A stretch of 29,420 nucleotides of DNA. Source: an uncultured Planctomycetales bacterium (GTDB lineage Bacteria; Omnitrophota; Gorgyraeia; Zapsychrales; Fredricksoniimonadaceae). Below, piece by piece: positions 1 to 29,418 of this stretch (positions within the stretch are counted from its first letter, which is position 1; every line of letters starts with the position of its first letter). The notes under the pieces are model-generated. The model ran no database searches and was not told the DNA's origin. It saw only the letters and a list, made by a program, of their open reading frames with translations. The stretch is from contig CAYNGE010000001.1 of the NCBI GenBank assembly GCA_964396865.1, forward strand, positions 1 to 29,420. The letters are read 5' to 3'. The translations under genes and the position numbers were made by a program.

Positions 1-231
1 CCTTCCACGAAGACCCTCGTTCTGTCTTACAAAACTCCTCCACTCGGCGTTTACATCCCTTTTTTGAGAAAAATTTGGTTCATAAATAGTTACGTGCGCG
101 CCAAGCGAAGCGACGATCACCTCAACCTCAATAAGCTTATTGCGGAAATAACCGCCAAGACTAACTGTGCCCGGCCCAACGGAAACAGCCGACCGCCAAG
201 CCTCTCCTCCAAGCCGGTGAATGGTATCAAG
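1..231 (-). other. Start of class I SAM methyltransferase domain (3), truncated by the window edge
   Basis: SAVSVGPG...VIVASLGAHVTIYEPN (motif I and beta2 acidic residue). Confidence 0.65.
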
Positions 232-3200
232 AAACTCGGCATTCTCCATTGTCAATGGCGCATTGGGATGACGGATATTGTAATAAAGATGTGCGGCCGC
301 ATTTGATAAAAACGCGGCTGCAACAGATAAAATAACGACAATCAAATTCCCGATAAGCCCCGGAACCCCAATAAACCAAGGAAGAGTCAATAATGCTATC
401 TTCGCTGTAACCCCGCCGATCCCTAAACCCATCAGGGTTGCCAACTTCATATGACGCCAACCGGTCGTCATCTCGTCTCTTTTATTGGAATTCTCAGGAA
501 AATGCGAAGCTATATAATCACGCCGCAAGGATGCTTTTACCTCATACCACGGCGCAAAGTATAATTGGATCTGCCTGTTTGTCGCTTTCCACATTCCCAG
601 GCTTATCCAACTAAAGAATTTTCGTCCGGGTCCATAAGTCGTCCAAAGAGTCAGCCCCGCAACGGGTTGCGCGGCAAGCTGCATAGTTTCAATGACCTTG
701 CAGAAATAAAATGGTTTTTCAATGACCGCGCAGATGCCGCGCTTTTCATCGCGGATGTCGCCCTCCTCATTCAGGGCAAGTTCCGTAAGCTGTGGGAAAT
801 TCATAAACAAGGCAACTTCCTCAATGTCAACGCCGGCATCTCGCAAATTTTCCAATTCGCTGCGGACCAAAGCCATATGGCTAGGAAGGATCTTAGGATA
901 ATATTCATGAAAAAGCTCTTCAACGGCTTCCGGCAATAACAATCCTTCTGCGTCATAGCATTTCAACAAAGGATTTCCAAGGCCTTGTCTCTTTATGCCG
1001 GGGACATTTTCCAATAAAAAGAGCCTAAATTCCGCAATCGCCTGCTCCCAGTTTCCCTCCAGCGCATGCCTCCTGGCTCTGCCTAAGTTGCGAACGCTCC
1101 ATGGAAGACCGTTATTATCCGAGAATTTCCTAAAAATATTCATTTCAATGGCCGAGCTAAAATCATGTTCATCTCCTCCGCCGAAATCAGCTGCATTCTC
1201 TAGACAGAGACACCCCATCCATTTCTTGGCCTCGCAGGACATATGGTAGCAAGCACCGACATATTTCATAATTGCAGCGATCGCCTTCTGGTCGGTTCCG
1301 GCTTGAAGCGTTTCATGGACCCGCAGGAATGTTTCGTCAAGCATTTCATCTGACCGGCCAAAAAGAACAATCAGGCCATGAAGATCGCCCAAATCGTTCA
1401 CAGATAAACCGATTTTCTTCAACACCGCAGACTGCACGATCCTTTTTAATAGACCGCGAATCTGCTCATGTGGATTTATACTTTTAGAACTAAAGAGATC
1501 TGGACGTTCTTTAAGCAATTTATACCCACTCTCCTCCCACAATAAAATCCAAAGCTCATAGTACTCTGCCGGCCCCATGTTGACGCCCCATTGAGCGCTG
1601 TCAGGATTAAAAAGAAGGAACTTGGCTTTTTCACTAAGCGCAGGCCATCCTTCACTTTTCACTTTGCCCAAATGAGCAAGGGCCGTTTCATAGCCGGCCA
1701 AAAGTTCACGAGCGCGAGACATTCGGCCGGTTGCCGGTGAACGGAGCTTGGCCTCATCGCTTAAGATGATAAATTGTGCCCGCTTATTTTTCGCTTGGAC
1801 CGCCTTGATCGCCTCATCAACAATGTCCTTTTTAATGTCCTGATCAAAAGTAATAAGAAGTTTGGGCGTAATGCGATAAACATTCAAATACCGTTTAAGC
1901 GAAAACAAAGTCGTCATACACACAAAATTAAACCTGTCCCCTAACTCTCCTCTTATGCGCGCTGCTAAATCTTCGGCTTCGTCTATGGGCTGGGTGAGGA
2001 TAAAGACTGTCTCTTTTGCCGGATCAATTTCCGGATAATCATGATAAAGCTGACGTAACCGGGCAAGTTCAGCTTCTTTCTTAGAGGGTTGTTTGCTGGT
2101 CACCAGCCTATTGGCCGCATCAAATTCGGCAAGCTGCTTTTCGCGTAATTTCGTAATTTGCTCAAAAAATTCATAAAAACTATACGGCTTTTGTAGGATC
2201 GCGACCCTCTGGGCATCAGAACCAAACATTTCCTGCAACACATGTCTATACTCTGGCACCTCAAAACCGGTGCTGGCATACAAGATCGGGATCGTCTTTA
2301 ATCCATCTCTATACTCAAGAGTTTTGTCGCTAGAAGGAATGCCCAGATCAAAAATGGCAACATCAAACTTATTGCGCGCCATTACCGCCAAAGCCTCATC
2401 AGCATCAGCGACAATATCAAAATGGTATTGTGAAACAGAGCCGAAATGTATCCGTACGGATTGTTGCAAGCTATCACGTATGGAGTCGTTATCTTCGAGC
2501 CAAAGGATAGAAAGCCGGGCCGGCGGAGTCCGTGATACGCCGGATTGCAGGCGCGCCGTTTCGTGTGCCTTCACTGCTTCATCATATGCAGTAAGCTGTG
2601 CTTGGCGGGCCTCTTTAACCACTGAAGAAATTACATCTAACAAATCGCTTTTACAAAGCACCTCGATTTCTTCCAACGGAACTCCATAAAGCGCTTGAAG
2701 CTCAGCTCCCCCACCAAATGCAACAATGCCCTCCTTGTCCAACGCGGAAATAGTGATCATCCTACCAAGTTTATTGATATCCCATTCTTTACGTATAGTT
2801 GAATAAACCACCGAGCGGCTAACAATGACAGGACACGGCAATAGAAAATCAATAAACGACAAATCAAAAGTTTTTGTTTGAATTAGCCCTCTAACTTGCG
2901 CCCAACCTCGAGCGTATGTAAACTCATATTGTGAATCACTTGCAAAGGAGTCATCTAATTCATCTTTAATTGCTTTTGATATATCCTCTTCATCTTCGAC
3001 TATCAGCACTCTCAATTTTTCTGGTATTTGCGGCCCAGGAACAAGAACGGTCGCGCTACTGGACTGCCGGCGCGCCGCCTCGTATGCCTTTATCGCCTCA
3101 TCATAGGCCGCAAGCTGTGTTTGGCGAGCCTCACTCACTGAGGAAACAACTAAAGAAGCTGTATCTACGATGCCGGTTTCTATGGTCATGCGCCCTAACG

Positions 3201-6200
3201 TTTGACTGTCAATAAAATTCCCTAAATACCTTATGACTTCTTCCTCAGAGCTTGGGGCGCCGGTAACAGCAATAATATTACTAACATCGCTCAACTTCTT
3301 AGCGAATGCCTCTTTACCCTTCTCTCCTCCCATGCCGATAGTTACATCAAATACAACTAAATCAATGGCATTATCCGATAAAATCTTATTAGCCCCTGAA
3401 CAATTCGACGCGAAATGAAATTTGTATTCTGCGGAGGGGAATACGGCTTTTATCTTATTCTTACAGCAAGCTAATACTTGCCTTTGATCCTCCACGACCA
3501 GCACGCGCAGCTTAGCAGGATGAACTGGGGCTTGCACAACGCCGCTTGATGCGGTGGATGCCGGTTGCTGTACTGATTTTTGCGCTACCCTCTTATCCAG
3601 CCATCGCGCATGCCATTGCTCCACAATTGAAACAACGCGTTCGTTGGTAAAATCCTTTTGGCTGATGACGGTCTCACCAGGAATACAGAAACTCGCATCC
3701 TTCGAGGATCCCTCCGCCAAAAGCGAATGCATGATACATAATGCTTCAGGATTTGCTGAGAAGATATCCGTAGTTACGTCGCTCACTCTTGGGGCATTAG
3801 CTCCTCCACCGACATGAATTAACGCCAAATCAACATCACGGCGATATTGGGTAAGGAGAGCATCAAATTCCTCCCACGTCTCACGCCTCTCAACAACCCA
3901 TCCGGCATGGCGCTTAAGTTCTTCCTCAATTGTTTCATACCATCCGTGATAGTCAAAAATAACCACCCGAAATTCGTCCCTCCGTGCCGCAGGCGCAGGC
4001 TTATCTTTCTGTGCACGACTTTCTTTAAGCTTTTGGTCCATCCCTTTAAGCTCCAGAACTCCATGGAGCCGCTTCATCCATTCGGATTCCCAAGACGCCG
4101 GTACAAGCGGAAAGTTCAATGCTTCCTCCAAAAGTCCAATGAACGGCTGCACATCGGCCAAGTCATTTTCTGTAAATAGCCCTTTCTTCAATCCTCTCTG
4201 AACGGCAGACAAATCATTCAGTTTTCCGGCCAAGACTTTTTGGAAGATGGTCTTCTTGCTCTTGCCTCGCATGTGCTGCAAAACAGTCCACTCCAGCTTC
4301 CTATATAATTCTCCTAGATCTTTTCCTGAAGACTTCTTTGACAAAACGCATTCCTCAAGACGCTTGATCAACAAGGTTGATAACGGACTGCTCATCCATA
4401 TCGTAATCCTCTCATTAAAGGGGCTCTCATCAAGATATAATGACGCGTGCAGGCCGTCGCAAAAATAAGTTATCTCTTTTGTCGCCACCCACACTCCTTC
4501 GAATTCCTTATGACGGCGGAACTCCAGCGCGGAGGATAGCCCTTTGCGCAAAACCGGGCCATTGGCATAGGAAAATTCTTCCTGATTGATGCGGTCATGG
4601 ATCAAGGTGATGTTGTGCGCCGAACGCGAGCCCATATACGGGTCAACCAACACTCTGGCCATGGTTGTTTGATCAAGGACAGCTGAAGCCGCATCGTACT
4701 GGATGCGTATATACGGACGCCCAAATTCATTTTCAAACTTTTTAATCGTCTCTTTCGTCACATTTCTACCAAAGGCCACAACGCTTGCCTTAAATCCTTC
4801 GGGCTCCGTCGCGCCCAGGCCGATCGGCGTCTTGGCAATTTTCTTTTGGGATTGAAGAGTCTTCGACGCAACGACCAAGGGCTTACGGAAATCTCCGATC
4901 ATGGGACGCATCTGAATAATAGAAAAGACCGGGCCGGTAGACGAATGTTGGAGTCCCCACTCAACATCCATAGACACTCCAACCTCGTCTTCCAGCGCGT
5001 TAACAACCAAATTCAACACAGATGCATCTTGGGCGCTAAGCGGCGCAAAAGAGCCATTGATCTTGGAGTAACCGCCTAAAACCTTTTGAATCAAAGCGCG
5101 ATCGTCACGCGCACAATACTCTTTTCGTTTAAGACGAAATGCATAGGGCGTATCAAGGAATAAAGGTTGATACTCCATGGATGGCGCCTTTCCGCCCTCC
5201 GGCTTGGTGAACATATACTCTGCCGCATTCGCAAACATGGACTGCACAGCGTAATTCGTGTCACCAACAACCGCCTCAATTGAAGTATGGCCGGAGAAAT
5301 TTGACATCGCCACTCCTGAGACGTCAAAATCAAGAAATGGCTGGATTAAAATACCAAATCCTTCCTCTTCGCTTAAAATATCCGGCAGGCCCTCGATTTT
5401 CTTTTCTCCCTGGTATTGGCGAATCCAGATAATTTCAATGGCATCCTTAAAGATCGCTTTTACTGCCTGAGCAATGAGGTCCCTGTCGCACGCTCTCTTT
5501 GAGAGGAAAATTCCGGCGAGGTTACGGACAAACGAATCTTCCCAAGTGCCGCTTGAACGGGCAATGGCCCAGCCGGTCAATCCCGCCGCTTTATCTTTTA
5601 AAAAATTGTCCAGCTCATTAGAGAAATTAAAATTACTAATAAGGCGCTGCAATTCACGAAAATCCTGTTGTGTGAAACTACCTTTTGTCAGGGCCTTACG
5701 TATAGTCTCGTTGCCAGAGGTGACTAGTGCAGCATTGTCATGCAGAAAGATCGTCCAGGCCTCGCGGATAGCAACCGTCAACGAGGGCGTGATAGTCCGG
5801 ACATTGGCTCCGAGACGCTTGGCGATAATGGGTATAAGAATTTCCAGAATAATGGTCCACGCGATTTTCCCACCGTAAATCCCGGCAAGATACTCAAAAT
5901 AACGGCGCACGCCAACGGCCTTAAGGGCAAAATATTCGTTTTCGGCATCGGTACGTTGGGGGTAGGCCAAGAGGCTTGCCTCGTGCAGGCGGGCCATTAA
6001 ACATTCAACTTCATTTTCTTTGGATAAAAGCGGACGGTCGATATCGCAGCGTTCACCGCGGACAACGCTATGCAGGTTCGGCATCATCTTCCCGGCAGGC
6101 GGAGCCCGGGTTTCCATAGTGCCCATTTTCTCAAGGGCCGCGATAACCTTCTCATCGCCCGCGATCCTTTTGGCCTGGGCATCAACCTTGTGCAGATAAT

Positions 6201-9200
6201 CCCAATCTTCTGGACCAATGGAAATATTACCGGAAATTTCGTTTTGTATCGACGCTTCGCGTTGTTGAGGGTCCTTGGGCAATCGATCGTTCCTCTTGGC
6301 GCGGTGGGGATCGTTTGCAGCCGGCGGTATGGCGGAAATAGCAACAGAGGACGCTTGCAGAAGCCTGCGCAACTGGATGGGCTGCGGCTCGGCATTCTTT
6401 ACCACAATTTTAGGGCCCGACACAGGAAGAAGCGGTGTAAAGCTTTCCTGACCAGCCCTATTGAGAGCGTATTTAACAACGCCGCGCGCCTGCGTGAAGC
6501 GAAGAACGCCTCCATAATTCATATCCGACTCCAAACGACTGCGCCGTTCCATCGGAAGTGCAAGCGCCCTGCCGAGAAGAAAAGGCGTAAACGGTTTATA
6601 GCACCATCTCATTTTCTTTAGGCTCCGGCTCCCAGCGACAATCCTCTTGGCCAGCGTCTTATCCGGTGCCATGCCCGTGTAACCATGCGCAATCTTGACA
6701 TTCTTCTTACCAAACAGTCTTGTTGCCAACTCATAAGCGTACGCCAGATTTTTAATATACTCCCGACGTCCCAACAGCCTGTACCAGGCGCTCTCCGTTG
6801 TGATATGGAACCGTATGCTCAGTTTTAAATTGTGCTCCATTCTAATCCGGGCGATCATCGTCATCGCCTCCTCGCCGAAAGACCCCTTCAGAAATCCGGA
6901 CGTGCTAAACGAGTCCCCGAATAATACTTCCATCGTAAACCCACGGTCGCGCCAGGCCTCAACAATATGTCCGTAATGTTTGCTGAATAATGGATCATGG
7001 TAATCCTTAAGCGGGTCGGCACCGAACCAGTTAAATGCTAAGACAAAACGATTCTTAAAAGGCTCGCGGGGATCCTCACTGCAAAAGACTGTCATTTCGT
7101 CCATCAGTTCGACGATCCACGGCCACGGCATAGAGCTCGGGCGTATGGAGCATGGACGGCAGCAATAATCGCAATGGGTCGAACATCCTTCCGTTATGTC
7201 AACGTAAGCGTTATACATCGACCCTGCCAAAGACAACGCTTCTTTTGGATCCATGTGCTCGAAATACTTCTCAAACCATGCCGCCTGAGGGTTCTTAAGC
7301 GCGGCAACGAGCCGGGCAATCTCCTGTGCGTCCACCGGCGAGGACAAAGCCACATCGAGCGCCTTAACAAACTCGTGCCCCGCGGCGGATAACGGCGCCG
7401 GATACTTCGCAATAACTGTCCTCTGTTCTCTTAAAAATTCCAAGCCTTCTATCGAAAGCAGCTCCGCATGCTTGCGGCCAATTTTATTTTTATTATTAAT
7501 CTTTAAATATTGAAGAGGAGTCCCTGTCTTAGGTCGCTTGGGCAAATTAGACAATTCTCGTTTTTCTTTCAACACCTCGCGCGCCTCAAACAGTATCCTG
7601 CGAGTCGTTCCTTCGGGTTTTTTAATTATGCGACTAATTTCCAGTGCGGTAAGCCCTTCCAAACAATGCAGGACCAAAACTTGACCATGAAGACCGCCCA
7701 ATTCATCTATCCAATCTAATACCAAATTTAACTCTTCTCTTAACATTAGGTCGTTTGCCAGATCGACCGATTTATCTTGCAAGTCCTCTATTAGGCCTCC
7801 TCCCACAGCATAACGTACCCTATAACTTTTAATAAAATTAAGACTGCGATTTACGGCGATGGGATATATCCACGTATAAAAAGCTGATCCCCCTCGAAAA
7901 TATCTTAACTTTCTCCAAGCAGTAATAAAAGTCTCTTGGACGATGTCTTCGGCATCATGAAAATTCCTCACTATGGAAAAAACGATACTAAAAATCCTGC
8001 CCTTATATTGTTCCATCAGCATTTCAAAAGCCTGTATATCTCCACGTTTGGCGCGTTCGACTAATCCTGCATCTTTAAGACCCTTCCTATTGGTCATAGT
8101 GCGAATGGCAAAGGCTTCGGCAATTCTCGATTGATGATATTGATATTCACGGGTTTGATGGGCGGCGATACGGGCTTGGCGATTCTTTAAATCACTGTTG
8201 TTTGGATATTGCGCATGCAGGGCTGTAATAAACGCACGAACGGATGCCTGTTCACCCTGCGGATGGTCCTGAATAAACGCCTCAAGGAGAGCGGCGTATT
8301 GGTCCGGCCGTACGTTCCAAAAATCAGTCTCCTCATCTTCAGCCGCCTTCATAGCCACCGCAAGCGCGCGCTCATACTTGCCAGCCAGAAGCAACCTCTC
8401 ATACTTCTCCCTCGCCGTCTTGCGCATGGCGGGGGCTGAAGATCCTCCCGTTATCTTTTGCAGATCCTGATTCCTAATTTGTTGAGATTTAAAAGCAGAA
8501 TTTAATCGCCTGGTTGCATGCTTTATTGCCCCGTTTTTTAGTCCTTCCTCTACTGCAGATGTGCCCCAACACAATTCATAGCCGGCATGCCCATCCATCT
8601 GCCTATGAATTTTTGTATGCGCGATCAAACGATAAGCATGATAATAAAACCCAATCACCGTCGCCGTTATAGTTTTGCCCTTATACGTAAATTCAAGTTT
8701 CTCTCCAAAATCTACGTCCAAATATGACAATTTGCTTCGGGGCTCACTTAGGAAAGTCACTCGCCCCTTTAAGATATCCCCTAAATCAACTGTCTGCGGG
8801 GCTTCTTGTGAATCAGCAGGGCAAAGCGGACTATCAATAACCGGCAAAGCAATAGGGATGTATTTCAAAACACTTGACTTTAATGTCAACGCTTCCAATA
8901 TCATCACCCTTTTGATCTTCGGTGTTGGCGCATATTCCTGCCTAGAGACGCTTCCAGGCTCTGCAGATTTTTCGGTCAAACAAAGCCGGGGCTGCGTCTT
9001 GATATAAGCAATATCTCCCACCGATAGTAAAAGAGCTCTTTCTACACTTTGATCGATGCTTATTTTCTCCTTGCGAAGCCTTTCAACAGAATCAGCCATT
9101 ATCGGGATACTTTCTCCACAGCCCCAAAGATCAAGATGATCCATCCATTTTCTCAATAATTCATCAATATCTACCTCCTTGGCCTCAACTGGAACGATGT

Positions 9201-21200: not shown

Positions 21201-24200
21201 TTTCTTTTGCGGTGAAAGTATTATGTTCATTGTAATCGGTAAAATACCACTTGGCGCCATCAGGAAGAAAAGTATAGCCAAAGCTGCCACCGGCACAAAA
21301 GACAAAAATCCTGTTCAAATAAGACCTAACCTCCGGTTCGCTTAATAGTGGTTGTAAACGTTTGTCGAGAAATGGTTCAATTTCATCAGTCACTAATACG
21401 AGCGGCGTATCCAGCTTGAGTAATTTCACTAACCGTCCAACAATCTTGGGTTCAATATCAACCTGGCCCTTTGCCATTGCTAACACGCCATCCAAGTCGC
21501 TTACGAGTGCCTTGACTTTGCGCAAAGTCTCCAGTGAAATCGGCTGCCTGCGCTTGATCTCAGGTAAACCAAATTGTGCGCGGAATTCTATATACTTGTT
21601 TCGCACGGCCTGGATATAGGCATGATTAAGCCTTACGCCATGTATTGGGCTGTACGCGAGGAAAAAGCGTTTAAAGTTATTTTTATCATCATAATTTGCG
21701 GCATGATGTTGGCCATTAATAAACCCATTCCTTACATCATCCGGGATCGCGGCATCTTCTATCGCTGATTCAATAAAAATAACCGCCGGCCCTGTAAGCG
21801 AGGCGATATCTATCTTTTTAGCTTTGGAGATAGGGCCTTTCTGATCACGAAGCCACAATTGGTTATTACCCGGATACCAGAAGTGCAAGGAGTAACCCTG
21901 TCTTGGCCCCTGCATAGGCGACATAAGGTTTTTATATTGTTCGAACATTGTATTATATTCACCGTCATGCAGAAGTTCTTGCAAACGTTCATCGCTACAT
22001 TGAAATTGTGCGGCAGAAAGCCTGGTTTCGCCTATCAAAAGATGGCTTAAGAGGATCGCTGCGCCGTTTCGATAGCCTTGATATGCGTCTGGAATATGGG
22101 CTGAAGTACGGCCGGGATCATCAACCGATGTCGTACCGTCAACCACCACAATGAACGGCTGGACCTTCAATAGATATTTTATCTGGGATTCAGTAAATAA
22201 ATGCGGATTGATCACTAAAGGATTATTATGTGATTCGGTAGAGCCCACTTTAGTGCTCCAGACGGGTATCTTGGTGCCGATCATATAAGTTTCCCCGCCT
22301 TCTTCTTCAGTAATAGGCGCAAGCGCAACGCCTCCATAGCTTAAATTTTGAATAACTACCAATGGCCGACCGAGTGCTCCGGCCTTAACTTCAATCTCTA
22401 CGATCTTCTCCCGCACCAGATGCGCCTCGTATACTAAACCCGCAATTTCACAGAGTTCCTGTTGGTCAAGTCCCAACTGATCGTTCGGCAGCCCAAGTCT
22501 CGCCTTTGTGAAAAATTCAACAAAATCCTCATATTCATAGAACCTGGTGTGAACCAAAGAACGCTTTAGTTCATTACGCAATATTAGATAGTTAAGGTCC
22601 GTATATACGGGATTGCCCTCTTCAAAATATCCCTGCCTGACCTTTTCGAACTCCCTCTTTAATTCCGCAAGCGATAATGAAGATTTGACTAAGTTCGGTA
22701 ATGCGTCAAGGCCGTCTTCTCTGGCATTTAATAACATTTGATGGCGCGGCAAAAATTCCGTCCATCTTTGACCGTAGGTAATTTTGAGTTTATTAATAAA
22801 AGCGTCTATGGTCCTGAAGTTTTCCGGCGTAACTGTGCCTAATTCCAAACGTATGATATCCTGCAGGCATGAACTATATTGACCGGTCTCCGGGCCCGGG
22901 AAAGCCTCTGCCATATTTTCAAACAACACTAAGCTGGTAAAGACCTCCTTGACATTTCGATTGAAAAGTTTGGTTAAAAATACTATGATCGGCCACTTCT
23001 TGCGGAATTCCTGAGGCGTGAGGAACCGTTTAAGGTGTGCTATGTTGACCTGAACAAGCTCAACTGCATCCACTCCGTGAGTACTGCACAGATCGAATAT
23101 ATCATCCTGATAGATCTTTAATTCATCGGCTGAAAAAAGCCGCTGCAGCCCGCAGCAAAAGGCCTCATAGCGGGTCCTTGACATATGACTTTTAAGGCGG
23201 TGGAGTTTTCCATTATGAATAATGTCTTTAACGCTTTCCACGGGCGGCGTTCGGGACGCCAAAAGCATTTTGGATCTTTTGGCTTTGGATATTCTAAACC
23301 GTTTCCACATATGCCAAAGCTCAATGCCAAGCACAATAAGTGCTACAGTAAAGAGGTCGGCGCCAAAGGAATATAAGACCTGTTTTTGTCCATCTTGTCC
23401 CCCATTTAAATCTTTTCCTGGCCGCGTGATAGTGTTCTTGTTTTGCCAAGTGGCGCTGTCCCCTGTGTTTGTTTTTTCTAAGGTGCGCAAAATATGGATC
23501 GGATATAAGAATGACCCCACATGGCCGACATCAATGTGCTCAATGTTAAGATCCTTCCTTAATTCAACCATCATCCGCATCTCCTGCGGCATTTCATAGC
23601 CGTCAAAAAGAACAACGCCTCTCTTCTTCTTGACAACCCTCAGTACTTCTTTGGTAATCTCAAATACCTCGCCCTTCAGCATAGAAAACATGCCCAGACC
23701 TACAGACACTACCTTATCAACGCTGTTGTCCGGAAGCGCTATGCCTTGGTGTGAAAATCTGGCGTCCGCCATCATCAGTTTAATATTAGGAATCGGGGCC
23801 GTCTCTTTTTCAATAGCGGCAAGTGTTACTAAGGCCTCTCTCAAGTTAAACGGGTTTGCATCAAGCGCAAAAAACTTTGTACCAGGATGACGCCTAGCCA
23901 TAAATATAGCCTCACGCCCCAATCCAGCCAGTATATGTAAAACGGTCTCGTTTTCTTTATAATTCAGAAGGCGGTCGAATTCATCAGCGTGGCGAATAAA
24001 TGAATCCGCCACTGCAGGGTTATCCCAAAAATAACCCGGGTCATTCTGTTCACTTTCAATAAGCATTCTGTTCCTGCCGGCTCCGTCTCTTCCCATATTC
24101 TTGTCAAACATGTACACGTATTTGAAGAAGACTTTTTGGAGTCGATCTTCATTGACATCCAACAATATGAGAAAATTTACAACAGCCCTTACATCCGTAA

Positions 24201-27200
24201 GAGTAGCGTTATAGGGATTTTTTAAGACCTCCCGCGCCTTAAGTACCAGTGCTTCAATTTCTGCCGCAGTATAGGGGCCGTATGTTTTTATGAGCTCCAG
24301 CCTGCTCTGATAATTCTTTGTCTGATCTGGAAACTCTTCTTCCAAATACTCGGCCGCCGGGTCCCTCCGGGCTAACAGGGCCAATGCGTCAATGGCCGCT
24401 ATGCGCACCGCCGGAGTTTGATTCTCCAGTCCCCGTCCGGAATCCTCTGAGTTTCCAGTTTGATGCCTGTATTTGGCAATTGTCGCCGCCACGACAACCG
24501 AGCCCAAAAGTCCCACCACAGGCCCCACGGTGTAGATGTTCATTAAAGATATTGCTGCCAGCCCAATCCCCCACTCCCCTGCCAAGGCAATGGTAGGAAA
24601 CAATATAAGACCTAAACCTATCATTAAGGTGAGCATAATCCCTCTGCCCTTAGTAAAGATACGGCCTCTTTTGACTTGAGCCTGTCTCTCTATATCTTGG
24701 GCCCTTTGATTATTTATTTGGGCATGCTTATGCTCTCCTAATGCCTCATAAATTCGAGCACGCATACGGTATAATTGGACATTAACTGACTTTTTCTCAA
24801 CACGATCCAATTGTTCAATGTGATTTAAAAGTATTAAAGAATTCTTAAGAAGGCTTTCATAATTCTTTGACGCTTTGTAACCGATCGTGTGCTCAACTAA
24901 ATCTAGAATGATCTGCTCATAGCCAAACAAGTCTGGTTTGATTGCAAACATCTGTGCCATAGCTTCATTGGCTCTACCAGAATCAAAAAGAGCCAATATA
25001 TGTGCTTTGAGACATATGCCTTTGTAGGGCTTTATGCCTTTCCTATATATAAGGATCGTCATAATGACGCCAAATAACAGTGCCGCAAAAACGACAAATA
25101 AAACAACAACTTTACTGTTAATCCCCATCGTCAATATTGTCGGTGTGAATACGCCCCCGCCAATGCCCCGCTCTCCTGCCTGATCGAACAATGGGAAGCT
25201 GTCCCCTTTAACTTTCCCATGGACATTTAGATTGCCCAAAAGAGCTAACTGTTCAAGGAATTTTTTCGGGTTATTATTTAACGGCTCCAATCTCTTTTTG
25301 GCCTCAAGAGATTCTTTTGTCTTTAAAAGATCAAGCCCGCACAAAACAGGCCGGCTGACCATCCCAAACTGCCCCCAACGGCTTAGTTTATTGACCATCG
25401 TTCTCTGCTCATTAAAATATTTATTAACGGTGACGATAAACCCTTGTGTGTCAAATTTATGAAGATCCGGCAACCCTGCTTGGAATTGTTCTATCTCTTT
25501 TTCTTTTCTGGCGCGTGTCACATAATATTCGGAAAGTCTTCTAATGGTCTGGTCAAATTCTACTTGAACCATTGTCTCAAAATTCCTTCGCTCTGCCTCA
25601 GTTAGTGCTAACCTTTGAGCGGTGACCTCTAGCTCTTCAGCCAATCGCTTTGCAACCGGGACTCTTGCAACAACAGTGGCATCCCCCGGCTCTTCTTCTT
25701 TCTCCTGAATAATTTCAATTTCTTTCGCGAGCCAATCATTTATTTTAGCCGACACGACCTTAAATTGTTGATCAATGGACCCTTGTCTTGCTTTGCGCTC
25801 CTGTTCAAGATTTAATTGCTTTTTTCTATCATCCAATCTCAACTGCAGATTCCGTACCATCGCTCCCAAAAAAGGGTTTTCTTCATTGGCCGTCAACTCC
25901 TCCATCGCGGCGGCGGCAACTCTCGATTCATGATATTTACGATTGCGGTCTTGATGGGCGGTGATACGGGCTTGGAGATTCTTTAAATCTCCGTTGTTGG
26001 GATATCGCGCATGCAGGGTTGTGATAAATTCACGAACGGACTCCTGTTCGTCCTTCGGATGGTCCTGAATAAACGCCTCAAGAAGAGCGGCGTATTTCGT
26101 CGGAGATGCATTCCAAAAATCAGTCTCCTCATCCACGGCCGCCTTCAGAGCAACGGCGAGTGCACGATCATTCTCGCAAGCCAAAATCATCCTCTCATGC
26201 CTCTTCCTAGCCATCTTGAGCATTCCAGGAGGCGCCAAAGGCGTCTGATCTAGCCCGTTTGGCGCTGTTTGATACAATAGAATTTCTTGGCGCAATTTTT
26301 CTTCTAATTGCTCAATTGCCCTTTCATGGCCGGATAGGCCTACTAACCATTCGATAAGAATGTTATATTCATCTTTTGCCAAAGATATGTTCAAGAAAAT
26401 ATAGATCACGTACCACAAGTCATCTATATGGGCCATGTCCGTTGTGTACCGCTGTTGATCGAAATATTTATCAATGACATTGCTTGTCACGCACTGGAGG
26501 CATGTCTGAATTTTGGGGAGATCGAATGCCGGGACCTTCTTTAATCTTCCTAAAGCGCTTGGATTTTTGATCGATATCTTCACTGCATAAACGATCTGCT
26601 GGAAATTTCTAATGTGCCCGTAAAGACCTTGCACGCCTAACTCCTTGGTTAAGTCAATGGGAGATGAGGGTTCGCCTTTATAAATTGTAGCCCCCTGAGA
26701 CAGAGCATGGATCTCTTTAATAGATGCAAGGAGTCCCGCCAGTTCGAACTTGCGGACAGACGCCTGCGGATTTTCCCCAGTACTTGGCCTTTGTTCTTCA
26801 ATGTCAGGATAGAGGCTGCCCCATCTTCTATTTCCCGTCCATGGCTTGGAGAGTTTGACTACTATTAAGTTATACCTCCACCCGGATCTAAAATTCCTAG
26901 GATTTAAGGCCGTAGTAACCTTCTTCATGTCTCTGAAACAAACAATCACTGTGTCCTCGCATCGATGTTTTATCACATAACTTATTGCAGGTATTTTCAG
27001 TACGGCTTCGTTGATCTCCCGCATTTTCTCTACTACTCTCTTCGGGTCATTTATCCTGCTCTTAAGATACGCTCGAAAGGCCCATACAGCCGCGTACACA
27101 ACGGCAGCGAGTGCAAGGATGGCAATAACAGGCCCGACCGGCCCGCCCATAAACGCAAACGCTAAAGCGGATCCTCCCAAAAGATTACCCCCGCCATGGA

Positions 27201-29418
27201 TTTCCTCAGCGATACTAGGCAGGCTACTGATACCGATAAGATCTCTGTTGCTGACTTGTGTACTTGGCCAATCGCCTGGCAAGTACCGGCGGCCGTTGAC
27301 AGAAAAGATTGCTTTTATCTGTCCATTTTGGTCAACAAGGTAAGGCTTTAATCGAGGATGCTGTTCCAGAAGAGACAGCCATACATCGTTAAGCGTTCGT
27401 TTATTCACAGCCACACGAACATAATTTTGCTCATTTGTGTCTTGCCACAAAGGTATGAAAATGAAGACGTCCAGTAAAAATCCACCCTGTTTGTTTTCCA
27501 TCTTTCGCTCAAATTCTAAATAACGTTCTCCAAAAATTGCCCTTTGGAGCATTACCAGACACTGATTATCCAGCCCTTTTAGGTAGTAACGCGTTTCTTG
27601 GGCATCACCAATGTAAAAATATGCAGCGATCACATGTAGCCAGGCAAGGGGATCACAAATGAAGTCCTTATGCACCGCTACCCATTGGGAATGAGGGCCG
27701 CCATCCCAGGCAAATCCAAATAAATCAAAGATCTGTTCATAAAAGATAGCTATTTGCGGTCGACACTTTAGCGGAGATGTTTTGAACTCAATCATTTCTA
27801 AAAGAAGCTTTCTATGCCCACTTCGAAGGCCATTCATTTTCTCAAACTGTTTTTTAAACGCCCCAAGAAGGCGATCATAGAATTCCTCAGGCATCTGGCA
27901 CAACTGCAAGTCATGCGGGAGGCCCGTCTTGTCAAGCGCTATTGCTTTTGTCCCATCGATTCTCTCAATGTGTGCTTGCTTGCCGCCAAGCTGACCATAA
28001 ACAGTCCCCGAAGGGTTGTTGTTATTGGCCGCCACAACCTTAGCCCCTTCGATTTTCATACCTAGGAGACGGACCTCCTGCCTGCCGATGATGTTGATTT
28101 TTGAAGCCAATTTAATGGCTTTCCGATGCAAAACAGAAGCTTTTTTATTCCAGAACGGTTCGTAACGCGAATCCTTTCTTAAAAGGAATTCAGCAATTTC
28201 ATGTTTGAAGGTCTCATCGGGGCCGGCTTTCTCTATAACTACCATAAGGACCTCATTGTATTTAACGACAACTCCGCCATCAAATTCCTTTAACGTGCCT
28301 GGCGCTACATAGTAAACCTCTACTGCCCGTGCATACCCTTCTACTTTAACGATCTCTGATTTGGTTGGCCAAAAACTAATAATACTGTTAATGCCTTTAT
28401 TATTCTTGGCTCCAACCACATTCGAAGTGGCGGGGTTTGACTCTTCGGGTTTTATGTGAATTTCAAATCTGCCGGCTACTTCAACTATGAGAAACTTCTT
28501 ACCATTAAAATCAAGAAAATCTAATATGTATTGAGGCACTTCAAACCCAATCCCTTTTACCCTAGGCCCTCTAATAAATCTTGGAATATAAGCGATCTTT
28601 GATACAACTTCCCTTATACGATCCCTTAGTTCTGTATCTCCTATTGAAGCTCCGTAAAAATTCCGAATCTTATATTCAAACTCCCATGAAGGATAAATGA
28701 CTATAAACCGGTTGTCGGGGTTATGGATATTAGGTGAAAGATAAAAAGACTTAGGCAGTCTTCGAACTACCCGTTTGGGCAGGATAATGAGCCCTTTCGC
28801 ATCACGGGTCACCTCGCAGAGGACATTAACAGAAGTACCTATAGCCGGCGCAGTAGGTTGTGCGGCAGATTGCCTGACCATAGCCGGGGTGATCCTTTGA
28901 TATTGCCTAATCGGCCTGACCTGCGCTGCGACAGCTTCTGCTTCGGTGGGTTGGGATTCGTGGATATTACGACTGTAAATGACAAGATCGGCAAGGCGAT
29001 TATTAAAATTCAAAACGTCGCGGATTTCTTTATCGGTGAGATTATCATGGCGCTGGCCTCGCTCGTCGCGATAAGAGATAACGGCTTTCCTGTTGACCTT
29101 GCCGACCTCATGGACCTCGATCATTTCAGGAGGGCCGGTCACCTTGTTGCTGTCTTTCATCCATTGTTCAAGATAGTTCAATGCCCAGCCCAAGTTCGAA
29201 AACACTTGCCGCACTTTCAATGGAAGACGTTGGTCTTTAGCCACCGCAACCATCGACTCTGACCACATTGGGTGGGCTTCGCCAGCATCTGAACCAATGG
29301 TAACAAATCGCTTCCTTCCCACCTCTCCGCCGGCACGCAAACGTTGGACTTCTGCCCTCAGGCCATTAACAACATCCGCATATGCCGGCGCCTCGCTAGA
29401 CACGAGCCAGACTTTGGT
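1..29418 (-). CDS. Internal fragment (>=9,806 aa, open at both ends) of a giant multidomain membrane polyprotein
   Basis: Manual translation shows no in-frame TAA/TAG/TGA from 29418 to 1. It begins TKVWLVSSEAPAYADVV and ends ...RSFVRQNEGLRGR. The other two minus frames hit stops within about 65 nt of the window end. Well-formed domain motifs occur in this frame throughout, and the ORF track has no minus ORF in this frame. Confidence 0.97.
250..642 (-). other. CPBP/CAAX type II-like intramembrane glutamic protease module
   Basis: LYFAPWYE (541-555; motif 1 with one Glu), YIASH (His 502; FxxxH-like), hydrophobic helices, AAHLYYN (HxxxN 277-291) then APLT. Confidence 0.55.
670..1029 (-). other. 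Degenerate receiver-like domain REC6 (His near the phospho-Asp position)
   Basis: FRLFLLENVPGI...EAVEELFHEYYPKILPSH (His 877)...VALFMN...AVIEKPFYFCKVIE. Confidence 0.55.
1660..2016 (-). other. Degenerate receiver-like domain REC5
   Basis: TVFILTQP...PKLLITFDQD...AQFIILSDE keeps the beta/alpha spacing of a REC domain but lacks the acidic pocket and Lys. Confidence 0.45.
2140..2514 (-). other. Receiver domain REC4 (all canonical residues present)
   Basis: LSILWLEDNDSIR...DEALAVMARNKFDVAIFDLGIP (Asp 2347)...IPILYAST...ILQKPYS (Lys 2188). Confidence 0.92.
2611..3018 (-). other. Receiver domain REC3
   Basis: LRVLIVEDEEDI...FDLSFIDFLLP (Asp 2848)...MITISA...VLCKSD. Confidence 0.88.
3142..3513 (-). 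other. Receiver domain REC2
   Basis: LRVLVVEDQ...IDLVVFDVTIG (Asp 3346)...IIAVTG; conserved Lys not evident. Confidence 0.85.
3616..3972 (-). other. Receiver-like domain REC1 (His at the phospho-Asp position)
   Basis: RVVIFDYHG...DVDLALIHV (His 3814)...CIMHS...ISQKDFTNERVVSIVE. Confidence 0.55.
4480..4860 (-). other. PEP-utilising enzyme mobile (phospho-His swivel) domain
   Basis: PIGLG...VLVDPYMGSRSAHNITLI matches the G..SH.ai motif; candidate phospho-His at 4615-4617, directly after PPDK_N. Confidence 0.65.
4900..5910 (-). other. PEP-synthase/PPDK-type nucleotide-binding (ATP-grasp, PPDK_N) domain
   Basis: IYGGKI (5866-5874), AIARSSGTWEDSFVRNLAGIF (5536-5559), GILIQPFLDFDVSGVAMS, MDVEWGL (4957-4968), IIQMRP. 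Confidence 0.88.
6349..7443 (-). repeat. Repeat B copy 2: radical SAM domain
   Basis: VDITEGCSTHCDYCCRPC (7162-7185), FNWFGADPL. A 44-nt exact DNA match at 7157-7200 and 15053-15096. Confidence 0.92.
7558..8097 (-). other. ECF-type sigma-70 factor domain (regions 2 and 4) embedded in frame
   Basis: DAGLVERAKRGDIQAFEMLMEQYKGRIF...HDAEDIVQETFITAWRKLRYFRGGSAFYTWIYPIAVNRSLNFIK; VLVLHCLEGLTALEISRIIKKPEGTTRRILFEAREVLK. Confidence 0.95.
8119..8436 (-). repeat. Repeat A copy 3 (N-terminal about 105 aa only)
   Basis: APAMRKTAREKYERLLLAGKYERALAVAMKAAEDEETDFWN...YAALLEAFIQDHP...DLKNRQARIAAHQ, truncated just before the sigma factor. Confidence 0.93.
9172..9381 (-). other. J-domain (DnaJ-like) with HPD motif
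   Basis: AESEEELKSIYRMFVQEVHPDHNPKDKEGSHEAFIDISKLF (HPD at 9283-9291). Confidence 0.85.
9880..10152 (-). other. Transglutaminase-like (Cys-His-Asp) domain
   Basis: KGSCWMNVLLGWAL (Cys 10111), AVHYYLLVKMGDKDFIVDIFS (His 10021, Asp 9976), in the order and spacing typical of the papain-like transglutaminase core. Confidence 0.65.
10213..10422 (-). other. Cluster of two to three transmembrane helices
   Basis: LFLLPMAYTIMPVLWGITTVALSLLIGNFIAHAIRAGPLT and IFSFLPFIFFAMAM. Confidence 0.75.
10522..12561 (-). other. SF2 DExH helicase domain, Hef/FANCM/MPH1-like
   Basis: FRAYQ (Q motif), TSLGKT 12463-12480, IVFVAPSNPLVRQH, EREKIWKESKIIIATS, DESH 12139-12150, LALTATP, about 280-aa insertion, HPKLEAL, KAIVFANN, ILVGQSGGKDGIRQTQREQ, SSSIGQVGLD, QRNGRSGR 10675-10698. 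Confidence 0.95.
13237..14238 (-). repeat. Repeat A copy 2
   Basis: APAMRKTARKKYEKLLLAG...YAALLEAFIQDHP...IQEKEEEPGD...LEPFNNNPKKFLERLALL, colinear with copy 1. Confidence 0.95.
14245..15339 (-). repeat. Repeat B copy 1: radical SAM domain
   Basis: VDITEGCSTHCDYCCRPC (CxxxCxxC at 15058-15081), FSWFAGDPL (GGE-like). The 1095-nt unit is colinear with 6349-7443. Confidence 0.92.
15472..15762 (-). other. GNAT acetyltransferase domain (2)
   Basis: VIAQIDYKV...LMVFMIHVDRNFQKRQIGTLLMLYL (motif A, V.x.xQ.xGiG.xL). Confidence 0.78.
15904..16503 (-). other. Rhomboid-family intramembrane serine protease domain with catalytic dyad present
   Basis: HLWTLFTYGFLHGSLFHLFVNGAVIYVFGK, VGSSAGIFALMAA (GxS, Ser at 16147), GNFGHAGGILAG (His at 15979). 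Confidence 0.95.
16561..16914 (-). other. About four transmembrane helices preceding the rhomboid core
   Basis: QMAFGTVMMSFGSL, PFVVVLGLAIIGVAIAY, LAVCLGVSLVLLFQLALFFI, GAMITMLISYFFW. Confidence 0.75.
16990..17481 (-). other. Degenerate HATPase_c (RsbW/anti-sigma kinase-like) domain
   Basis: LLLVLSLIMENIIQHE (N-box, Asn at 17326), VIRIFVH...LRFEIWGEG (G1 box lacking Asp), VGGHNFGISNLFEQLD (G2-like). Confidence 0.5.
17593..17775 (-). other. Two transmembrane helices
   Basis: SVAFCGFAITVLGHYWPGVQTFLIS and MLVDIFGALPLFVLGMAVG. Confidence 0.6.
17950..18261 (-). other. GNAT-like acetyltransferase domain (1)
   Basis: AIGEMYFN...AEVALRIYRGADTHSGIGLALMHRVVGLAR...ISIGFF resembles GNAT motifs A and B. 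Confidence 0.55.
19390..19872 (-). other. Class I SAM-dependent methyltransferase domain (2)
   Basis: DILIIGAGAGEIVRTI, LYKDQSFDMVLV, LVREIKRALRKNGQAFIH. Confidence 0.9.
20722..21531 (-). other. HAD-superfamily (Cof/IIB-type) phosphatase domain
   Basis: KVKALVSDLDGVL (DxD at 21490-21498), PLVLVTD (motif II), IFVFCAGGSFGY, SDKAGAVRSLL (motif III Lys), AMVLEDS (motif IV). Confidence 0.85.
21991..22401 (-). other. Possible type I phosphoribosyltransferase-like fold
   Basis: RPLVVIQNLSYGGVALAPI...PFIVVVDGTTSV loosely matches the PRTase beta-loop and the hhhhDD..tG PRPP-binding loop, but is degenerate. Confidence 0.35.
23296..23376 (-). other. Transmembrane helix followed by basic cluster
   Basis: LFTVALIVLGIELWHMWKRFRISKAKRSK. 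Confidence 0.65.
23470..23991 (-). other. Class I SAM-dependent methyltransferase domain (1)
   Basis: ETVLHILAGLGREAIFMARRHPGTKFFALDAN (motif I and beta2 Asp), IKLMMADA, LPDNSVDKVVSV, EVLRVVKKKRGVVLFD. Confidence 0.88.
24460..24642 (-). other. Cluster of about three transmembrane helices
   Basis: GIMLTLMIGLGLILFPTIALAGEWGIGLAAISLMNIYTVGPVVGLLGSVVVAATIAK. Confidence 0.75.
24679..24966 (-). other. TPR-like helical segment
   Basis: AHILALFDSGRANEAMAQM and LYRMRARIYEALGEHKHA resemble TPR helix pairs. Confidence 0.45.
25033..25128 (-). other. Transmembrane helix followed by basic residues
   Basis: VVVLFVVFAALLFGVIMTILIYRKGIK. Confidence 0.85.
25231..26229 (-). repeat. Repeat A copy 1: about 330-aa charged, helical module of unknown function
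   Basis: Aligns in frame with 13237-14238 and partly with 8119-8436. YAALLEAFIQDHP is shared by all three copies; 31-nt exact match atcccccggctcttcttctttctcctgaata at 25681 and 13687. Confidence 0.95.
27067..27186 (-). other. Transmembrane hairpin
   Basis: LLGGSALAFAFMGGPVGPVIAILALAAVVYAAVWAFRAYLK. Confidence 0.8.
28090..28320 (-). other. Putative metal-binding/zincin-like HExxE motif segment
   Basis: DETFKHEIAEFLL (HEIAE at 28189-28203) with a distal His (VLHRKA, 28126). This is not the canonical HExxH. Confidence 0.35.
28441..28833 (-). other. MraZ-like (tandem SpoVT/AbrB) DNA-binding domain within the giant ORF
   Basis: CEVTRDAKGLIILPKRVVRRLPKSFYLS...DNRFIVIYPSWEF...LRDRIREVVSKIAY...GFEVPQYILDFLDFNGKKFLIVEVAGRFEI follows the MraZ pattern (D-x-KG-x-x-x-P, l.iyP..ew, second-repeat iP..l, EI). 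The second DxxGR is not conserved. Confidence 0.7.

Follow-up and report, generated by a model that had tools for sequence, protein, structure and literature searches.

Giant proteins of the Omnitrophota

The giant proteins of the Omnitrophota, which include the 39,678-aa protein with 42 transmembrane (TM) segments of Candidatus Velamenicoccus archaeovorus LiM, the Archaeovorins, and the class-1 multi-enzyme giants of Nielsen and Lui (2026), are the closest known counterparts of the gene described here. That gene occupies a 29,420-nt stretch of DNA with a GC content of 46% (contig CAYNGE010000001.1; the whole stretch is referred to below as the window), one minus-strand reading frame of which is open from end to end. 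The window is probably an internal 29.4-kb slice of a longer gene, most likely from Candidatus Omnitrophota, that belongs to the class of giant, TM-rich, multi-enzyme mosaics. The frame is a sequence-unique new example of an already described class of giant genes, and its oddity is real without being unprecedented.

Earlier work has described that class. Open reading frames (ORFs) with lengths above 20 kb were found in 77 of 116 Velamenicoccia genomes and were described as "poorly conserved," with few annotated domains (PMC10066038). Among clusters of proteins of at least 10,000 aa, 80% are singletons (10.64898/2026.06.07.730766). In a catalogue of 916 Omnitrophota giants compiled by Nielsen and Lui, a signal-transduction and regulatory module ranks among the top two domain communities by size; 105 of the proteins have receiver domains and 90 have radical S-adenosylmethionine (SAM) domains (10.64898/2026.06.07.730766). 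West-Roberts et al. likewise reported CheY-like receivers and frequent PPDK domains (10.1101/2023.11.21.568195).

The window shares several properties with these giants. Its ORF exceeds the 20 kb used as a criterion by Seymour et al., many TM segments lie between soluble blocks, and the protein is a non-repetitive mosaic of unrelated Pfam families, mostly unannotated and sequence-unique. It carries methyltransferase, radical-SAM, receiver and PPDK-type domains, all of which are common in the published giants, and a family-specific radical-SAM module (module B, below) occurs both here and in Omnitrophota giant ORFs. The visible 9,806 aa fall just under the 10,000-aa threshold of the catalogue, but only because the window ends. 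The rhomboid protease, J-domain and extracytoplasmic function (ECF) sigma factor found here go unmentioned in the main texts of the papers on Archaeovorins and class-1 giants; sigma, DnaJ and Rce1-like protease domains do recur in the related giant ORFs that were scanned in this work.

Two other kinds of very long bacterial ORFs bear comparison. Nonribosomal peptide synthetase and polyketide synthase megasynthases are also multi-domain proteins, but the present frame has no condensation, adenylation, thiolation, ketosynthase, acyltransferase or acyl carrier protein domains, lacks assembly-line repetition, and is rich in TM segments. Giant repetitive adhesins, such as the RTX/Bap-like proteins and the giant ORFs of Chlorobium chlorochromatii, are similarly long and occur in bacteria with cell-cell interactions. 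In contrast to these, the window has no tandem repeats at the DNA level and no Ig-like, cadherin or RTX repeats; its enzymes and regulators are of cytoplasmic type, and its internal repeats amount to two or three dispersed module copies and three receiver domains.

An uninterrupted frame of 9,806 codons

Six-frame translation found no stop among the 9,806 codons of the minus-strand frame that runs from base 29418 down to base 1, and amino acids are numbered here along that frame. The other five frames contain 345, 357, 520, 567 and 768 stops, and the longest open stretch among them is 197 codons. Given a stop probability of 0.0575 per codon from base composition, a stop-free run of this length would arise by chance with a probability of about 1e-252; with a GC content of only 46%, composition does not explain the open frame.

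1..29418, minus strand: stop-free frame of 9,806 codons, an internal slice with start and stop both outside the window

The gene extends past the window on both sides, as the frame is still open at either end. For the same reason, the frame is missing from a mechanical list of ORFs, which holds just 14 entries of at least 100 aa, the longest of 183 aa. The original prediction of a single minus-strand frame of more than 9,800 codons, open over 29.4 kb and invisible to the ORF track, was therefore borne out, and computed translation turned up none of the in-frame stops that had been sought.

The coding signal is even along the frame. In 500-codon blocks, GC1 ranges over 0.47–0.59, GC2 over 0.34–0.44 and GC3 over 0.40–0.56, while both same-strand off-frames contain 16–56 stops per block, which is a normal density. 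Codon usage correlates between sixths of the gene at r = 0.79–0.94, and GC content and skew are homogeneous along the window. No Rfam family or tRNA was found in the window, its promoter-like and terminator-like motifs show no excess over shuffled sequence, and Tandem Repeats Finder detected no tandem repeats. A Shine-Dalgarno-like motif precedes 12 of the 217 in-frame ATG codons with no pattern at domain boundaries, so internal starts receive no support. Taken with the selection on duplicated modules described below, the frame is continuous, coding throughout, and under purifying selection.

Some further features of the window were also noted. The longest conventional ORFs, for example at 6070-6621 (+), 2270-2689 (+) and 5474-5878 (+), are antisense or out of frame to the giant frame, and these ORFs of up to 183 aa are most likely shadow ORFs. 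Plus-strand GC skew is negative over the whole window, 1-29420 (−0.06 to −0.20), such that G exceeds C throughout on the coding minus strand. AT skew changes sign several times (about −0.15 near 12–14 kb and +0.12 near 15–17 kb, for example), seemingly following local amino-acid composition.

Duplicated modules and their relatives

Self-comparison of the protein uncovered internal segmental duplication, with one module present three times (module A, one copy partial) and another twice (module B). The copies are as follows:

25219..26235, minus strand: module A copy 1 (aa 1062-1400; 74% aa identity to copy 2, 65–82% in BLAST segments; ratio of nonsynonymous to synonymous substitution rates, dN/dS, 0.41)
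13225..14235, minus strand: module A copy 2 (aa 5062-5398; internal alignment with copy 1)
8101..8490, minus strand: module A partial copy 3 (aa 6977-7106; 66–71% identity to copies 1 and 2; dN/dS 0.47)
14236..15342, minus strand: module B copy 1, divergent radical-SAM-like (aa 4693-5061; CSTHCDYC at aa 4780-4787)
6340..7446, minus strand: module B copy 2, divergent radical-SAM-like (aa 7325-7693; CSTHCDYC at aa 7412-7419)

The module copies align codon for codon with no frameshifts, at 78–84% nucleotide identity and dN/dS of 0.35–0.47. These values are direct evidence of protein-level selection on the giant frame. Segmental duplication within the gene contributed to its construction.

Module A, some 340 aa in length, looks helical by eye. 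It has no Pfam, NCBIfam or PDB match, and copy 2 has no relative among 1.84 billion representatives. The two copies of module B, each of about 370 aa, are 69% identical (57–80% in the self-comparison), with a dN/dS of 0.35. An alignment of 21 module B members retains CxxxCxxC in all but one, the first and third cysteines being invariant and the second present in at least 90% of members. In the family this motif has the near-universal form GCSxQCDxC, and the further motifs are MPWPW, DPLRDYYDP and TSGFExGSxGERA. PF04055 is matched by 10 of the 21 members (best E = 9.4e-6; the window copy itself gives E = 0.078), and the best PDB match of the family profile is the radical-SAM epimerase YydG (E = 1.3e-3), over the cluster loop only. 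With the retained CxxxCxxC, a [4Fe-4S] cluster motif near the start of the core, these matches suggest that module B is a divergent radical-SAM domain. A zinc anti-sigma (HxxxCxxC) reading of module B was rejected: family members do not conserve the histidine, and the residues are spaced as in CxxxCxxC.

Module B is the only family-specific part of the frame for which relatives were found. An exhaustive HMMER search with aa 4500-5699 against the 1.84 billion representatives recovered about 35 relatives of module B at 29–39% identity, many of them within proteins of 2,200–6,528 aa. Among those with a phylum label, 10 distinct metagenome-assembled genome (MAG) records are from Candidatus Omnitrophota, against one each from Thermoproteota, Patescibacteria and Saganbacteria, and the three best-scoring matches are from Omnitrophota.

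A module B profile also recovered 15 distinct loci (L001–L016, with L004 and L012 being the same sequence). In seven of these (L001, L002, L004, L007, L008, L013 and L015), the module lies in a frame that is open over the entire fetched locus, for 4,472–6,951 codons (13–21 kb, up to about 20.7 kb). At five further loci the frame around module B has between 823 and more than 5,277 codons (at least 1,976 in L005, L009 and L010, and up to more than 5,277), and in the remaining three the module is free-standing. The suggestion that the frame is a giant TM-rich multi-enzyme mosaic of the Omnitrophota type agrees well with these findings, that is, with Omnitrophota labels on 10 of 13 relatives and wholly open frames at 7 of 15 loci.

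Between the ORFs at these loci and the window, module B alone is shared, which fits the published picture of giant genes as poorly conserved and mostly sequence-unique. When the whole protein was compared by phmmer with the complete set of giant ORFs and long proteins retrieved, the helicase and the sigma domain were the only similarities besides module B. No close relative of aa 1-1000 was found in GTDB species representatives, and none of aa 1-1000 or aa 4001-7000 in a word-indexed collection of 5.8 billion proteins. Modules B and A together had no close relative in JGI metagenome contigs or IMG/VR, and 25 kb of the window DNA had no match among PLSDB plasmids or GenBank phages.

Embedded sigma factor and other domains

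Searches of Pfam, NCBIfam and the PDB were run on overlapping 1,000-aa tiles of the translated frame. The original prediction had counted about 25 recognisable domains; profile searches support 13 instances of about 10 families, in addition to the three copies of the orphan module A. These domains cover 29% of residues, or 37% when module A is included, leaving about 70% of the protein unannotated, and no single Pfam family dominates the mosaic. All six of the functions that had been proposed are nonetheless represented, namely signalling by receivers, transcription by the ECF sigma factor, DNA unwinding by DEAD and Helicase_C domains, group transfer by methyltransferases and PPDK_N, proteolysis by the rhomboid, and chaperone recruitment by DnaJ. 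The soluble regions, apart from modules A and B, are as follows:

7555..8097, minus strand: complete ECF (group IV) sigma-70 factor with regions 2 and 4 (aa 7108-7288; TIGR02937 81.1 bits against a cut-off of 42.9)
10531..12552, minus strand: SF2 helicase, Hef/ERCC4/RIG-I-like (aa 5623-6296; DEAD 60.9 bits, Helicase_C 52.6 bits)
4900..5808, minus strand: PPDK_N-type ATP-grasp, the nucleotide-binding domain of PEP-utilising enzymes (aa 7871-8173; PF01326 37.8 bits, gathering score 27, E = 1.8e-9)
1930..3558, minus strand: three tandem divergent CheY-like receiver domains (aa 8621-9163; PF00072 52.5 bits jointly)
9184..9375, minus strand: putative J-domain (aa 6682-6745; PF00226 26 bits, E about 1e-5, gathering score 27.8)
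23626..23943, minus strand: SAM-methyltransferase-like domain 1, weak (aa 1826-1931; PF13649 21.9 bits, E = 2.9e-4, below the gathering score)
19480..19854, minus strand: SAM-methyltransferase-like domain 2, weak (aa 3189-3313; PF08241 21.5 bits, gathering score 21.2)
27187..29418, minus strand: orphan soluble region with no known fold (aa 1-744; no matches for aa 1-1000)

The sigma factor scores 58.8 bits with Sigma70_r2 and 105–107 bits with RpoE models, and it aligns to residues 25-212 of the 219 in PDB 6jbq_F (E. coli sigma-E) at 84 bits. ECF sigmas are usually free-standing proteins of about 160–350 aa with a cognate anti-sigma factor, but this one sits inside a chain of more than 9,806 aa, and no anti-sigma domain was recognised in the giant frame. 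In the indexed database, its 25 nearest relatives are without exception free-standing ECF sigmas (160–346 aa), and they carry no organism names that might serve as a taxonomic anchor. The partial third copy of module A stands directly before the sigma domain.

A comparable arrangement was seen in L015 (contig Ga0315294_10000007, 259 kb; 10001-12761), where an unrelated giant ORF carries module B followed by an embedded ECF sigma. In that locus, Sigma70_r2 begins at about nt 11267, r4_2 ends at about nt 11726, and HATPase_c follows at about nt 12398-12761, placing the sigma within about 200 aa of module B. The juxtaposition of sigma and module B is therefore common to the window and L015, in opposite order.

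Other domains differ in how well they are defined. The helicase matches an archaeal Hef nuclease model at 77.9 and 73.5 bits and has PDB matches to Hef (1wp9), FANCM, LGP2 and Dicer, and its motifs are intact (I, LGKTG at 5649; II, DESH at 5757; III, TATP at 5801; VI, QRNGRSGR at 6241). The J-domain has HPD at aa 6710, although its PF00226 match spans only profile positions 10–48 of 63. Methyltransferase-like domain 2 is also matched by PF08242 at 17.9 bits and has a GAGAG motif at aa 3192. Singly, the receivers score 25.1, 18.2 and 21.1 bits, with 22–34% identity among the internal repeats. For the orphan region, aa 1-1000 gave no Pfam, NCBIfam or PDB match, and aa 1-4200 matched nothing at E ≤ 1 among PDB sequences.

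Certain candidates were set aside. Motif calls for a HAD phosphatase (aa 2625-2900) and for a GNAT domain with a GHKL ATPase (aa 3700-4170) were dropped, as they had no Pfam, PDB or AlphaFold support; AlphaFold models built without an alignment had mean pLDDT values of 36 and 32 for the two regions, which is unusable. A defence-system reading was rejected as well, since PADLOC models gave only generic helicase and receiver cross-matches.

The related giant ORFs carry the same kinds of domains. By Pfam, L015 combines module B with Sigma70_r2, r4_2 and HATPase_c, receiver domains occur along with methyltransferases in both L013 and L004, and L002 has DprA, GNAT, DnaJ and HATPase_c. Similarly, L008 has a Rce1-like intramembrane protease, SEC-C, Radical_SAM and phosphoesterases, L009 an HD domain, and L010 PRK, methyltransferase and Radical_SAM domains. 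Judged from these annotations, the regulatory content of the window is typical of the Omnitrophota giant class because its relatives share it. The window had been called unusually regulation-heavy, a description not supported in view of the sigma, HATPase_c, receiver, DnaJ and HD domains in related giants and of the 916-protein catalogue.

Rhomboid protease and membrane segments

Membrane segments were called by Kyte-Doolittle hydropathy only, which gave about 20 hydrophobic segments in about nine clusters, lying between soluble blocks along the protein. TM clusters between domains had been foreseen, and this layout agrees. The main segments are as follows:

15928..16908, minus strand: membrane block with a rhomboid intramembrane serine protease (aa 4171-4497, Pfam part aa 4338-4492; PF01694 68 bits, gathering score 22.6)
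27076..27186, minus strand: hydrophobic cluster 1, in which a weak helix rich in Gly precedes a strong TM helix and a K/R-rich stretch (aa 745-781; Kyte-Doolittle 2.37; K/R 0 upstream, 5 downstream)
24475..25167, minus strand: hydrophobic clusters 2 and 3, a TM at 1437-1455 and a pair at 1594-1612 and 1630-1648 (aa 1418-1648; Kyte-Doolittle 3.07, 2.39, 1.98)
23323..23379, minus strand: hydrophobic cluster 4 (aa 2014-2032; Kyte-Doolittle 2.05)
17602..17658, minus strand: isolated TM helix (aa 3921-3939; Kyte-Doolittle 2.05)
10222..10401, minus strand: hydrophobic pair (aa 6340-6399; Kyte-Doolittle 1.90, 1.53)
319..444, minus strand: C-proximal TM pair (aa 9659-9700; Kyte-Doolittle 1.72, 2.30)

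The rhomboid also matches GlpG models at 30.7 bits and keeps its catalytic residues, with the serine in GSSAG (4422-4426) and the histidine in FGHAGG (4478-4483). The HxxxxHxxxN motif is kept as HGSLFHLFVN (4350-4359), and alanine replaces glycine after the serine.

Four isolated strong TM segments, at aa 763, 1437, 2014 and 4190, have upstream/downstream K/R counts of 0/5, 1/4, 3/5 and 0/4. The K/R-rich flank is C-terminal in all four, and a weak Gly-rich hydrophobic stretch precedes each. Positive flanks on the same side of each helix are impossible for successive single-pass helices and are expected of hairpins with both ends in the cytoplasm. The element as a whole (a Gly-rich weak stretch, a strong helix and a Lys/Arg cluster) recurs at aa 745-781, 1418-1458, 2005-2045 and 4160-4215, corresponding to window positions of about 27076-27186, 25045-25167, 23284-23406 and 16774-16941, and it looks like a reused hairpin anchor. 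Its helices are rich in small residues, and segments of this type are known to be cut by rhomboids.

One related giant ORF, L008 (10001-20761), has a Rce1-like (CAAX) intramembrane protease in place of the rhomboid, together with a SEC-C motif. The presence of different intramembrane proteases in different giants hints at membrane proteolysis in cis as a possibly widespread trait of such genes.

A possible mode of action

The catalytic motifs of the rhomboid, the helicase, the radical-SAM modules and the J-domain are intact. The preferred reading of the protein, a tentative one, is that of a membrane-tethered, cytoplasm-facing scaffold or pro-protein, rather than an extracellular adhesin. The polypeptide would be stitched into the cytoplasmic membrane by helical hairpins, with its large soluble regions all in the cytoplasm. 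Such a layout is suggested by the needs of the recognised domains, which depend on SAM, ATP, a reduced Fe-S cluster, DnaK, RNA polymerase and phosphodonors, and by the K/R flanks of the isolated TM segments, which fit hairpins. DnaK, brought in by the J-domain, could fold this very long nascent chain or insert it into the membrane, the receivers could gate activity, and the in-cis rhomboid, or another protease, might set free the sigma factor or other modules by cleaving Gly-rich TM segments.

Release by cleavage is a logic invited by the co-occurrence of a sigma factor and an intramembrane protease. In regulated intramembrane proteolysis systems that free ECF sigmas (for example RseA/RseP–sigmaE) and in membrane-tethered transcription regulators, an ECF sigma is likewise held at a membrane-anchored polypeptide and an intramembrane protease is involved; the likeness is a functional analogy only. 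In contrast to RseA/RseP–sigmaE, the sigma here is covalently part of the membrane protein and not bound by a separate anti-sigma, and the protease is a rhomboid instead of a site-2 metalloprotease. Taken to its limit, the gene would encode a self-contained regulatory pro-protein, in which the sigma and perhaps other modules are stored in cis, held inactive by the membrane tether in lieu of an anti-sigma, and freed by the protein's own rhomboid through cutting of Gly-rich TM hairpins under in-cis receiver control. This version is a long shot. If it were true, the embedded ECF sigma beside module B in the unrelated L015 would mark a conserved "sigma cassette" in giant genes.

Weighing the alternatives

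Several observations weigh against assigning the window to a cytoplasm-facing giant of the Omnitrophota. The Archaeovorin hallmarks SecA_DEAD, HEAT repeats and glycosyltransferases are absent from this slice of a truncated gene: SecA_DEAD, which in divergent form is present in most full-length giants, was not found in the window and SecA_PP_bind left only a trace (E = 0.15), while HEAT and TPR repeats and glycosyltransferases, the commonest Archaeovorin domains, gave nothing at E ≤ 1. The slice is also without TPR, dockerin and C39 domains, unlike the Omnitrophota giants, and its helicase is Hef/ERCC4-like. The receivers, the methyltransferases and the J-domain each score below or near Pfam gathering thresholds. 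Topology read from hydropathy is weak, a strict single-pass reading of the TM segments would place some regions outside the cell, and published predictors disagree on the topology of Omnitrophota giant proteins (10.1101/2023.11.21.568195). The sequence itself was not recovered from GTDB representatives, JGI metagenomes, IMG/VR, plasmids, phages or the protein collection. Finally, it is module B, at 24–39% identity, that carries the whole of the taxonomic link, and three of its labelled relatives, all on MAG contigs that are possibly mis-binned, are not Omnitrophota.

Among the alternatives, the one that survives best, doubtful as we consider it, is that of a polyprotein precursor. The single chain would become active only after cleavage into many independent proteins, and its giant size would be a delivery format. 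An intramembrane protease is embedded in the chain, and a tethered sigma cannot easily join RNA polymerase, its nearest relatives all having been found as free-standing proteins. Module B, too, exists as a free-standing gene of 359–562 codons in 3 of the 15 loci (L006, L014 and L016), and West-Roberts et al. raised proteolytic processing by C39 or S8 domains as a possibility (10.1101/2023.11.21.568195). However, no cleavage sites could be identified, no C39 or S8 peptidase occurs in this slice, and rhomboids cut inside TM helices and not between soluble domains.

It is unlikely that the protein is instead an extracellular or cell-surface weapon for predation or attachment, as proposed for the Archaeovorins, with its soluble regions mostly extracellular. 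In published work on these proteins, most domains are predicted to lie outside the cell (10.1101/2023.11.21.568195), and peptides of the LiM giant protein were reported to be 3-fold up in attached cells. Binding or lytic folds could lie hidden in the 70% of sequence without annotation, and a single-pass reading of the isolated TM segments does put some regions outside. Against this, no adhesin, dockerin, CAZyme, HEAT or lytic domain was found among the 9,806 aa, each recognised domain depends on a cytoplasmic cofactor or partner, and the K/R pattern favours hairpins over single passes.

A host outside the Omnitrophota, namely another ultra-small or episymbiotic lineage with giant mosaic ORFs, such as Patescibacteria/CPR or a related candidate phylum, also seems improbable. 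Three relatives have other labels, Patescibacteria group for L004 (the same sequence as L012), Saganbacteria for L006 and Thermoproteota for P0029; similar ORFs have been published outside Omnitrophota (10.1101/2023.11.21.568195; PMC10066038), and the window contains no marker gene. On the other side stand the 10 Omnitrophota records among 13 phylum-labelled relatives, the three best-scoring included, and the nature of the exceptions, which are MAG contigs consisting largely of giant ORF and easily mis-binned. Two of the exceptions can be described further. Over 20.7 kb, the sequences of L004 (DATJPV010000041.1) and L012 (Ga0335071_10000483) agree at 99.99% identity, with a frame open along the entire locus. 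P0029 (MFC1754598.1), a partial protein of 3,711 aa with the label Thermoproteota archaeon, takes up the whole of an 11-kb contig. Non-Omnitrophota labels on contigs that are nearly all giant ORF may be binning errors.

Last, an assembly chimera, an artefactual fusion of ordinary genes, or a chance or decaying untranslated frame is very improbable and strongly disfavoured. Giant ORFs are suspicious in short-read metagenome assemblies, and an assembler might in principle be misled by internal repeats of 78–84% nucleotide identity. Against this, the 29.4 kb contain neither stops nor frameshifts, composition and codon usage are homogeneous, the repeats are diverged, in frame, under purifying selection and not in tandem, and independent assemblies from many samples show the same open frames around module B.

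Implications for giant genes

Giant genes of the Omnitrophota are among the longest in any organism. Documentation of the class is already good: catalogued proteins of at least 10,000 aa number in the thousands, with 5,761 published. ORF callers and protein databases systematically lose such genes, and the protein described here is absent from a collection of 15 billion proteins. Module B seems to be largely restricted to giant ORFs of Omnitrophota MAGs, and it could serve as a search marker for fragments of giant genes.

Published ideas on the role of these genes centre on extracellular attachment and the degradation of prey cell walls. Everything recognisable in the present slice is of cytoplasmic, regulatory or nucleic-acid-handling type, with an intramembrane protease in addition. 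The slice thereby offers a testable alternative, in which an Omnitrophota giant might act as a membrane-tethered scaffold or pro-protein capable of processing itself.

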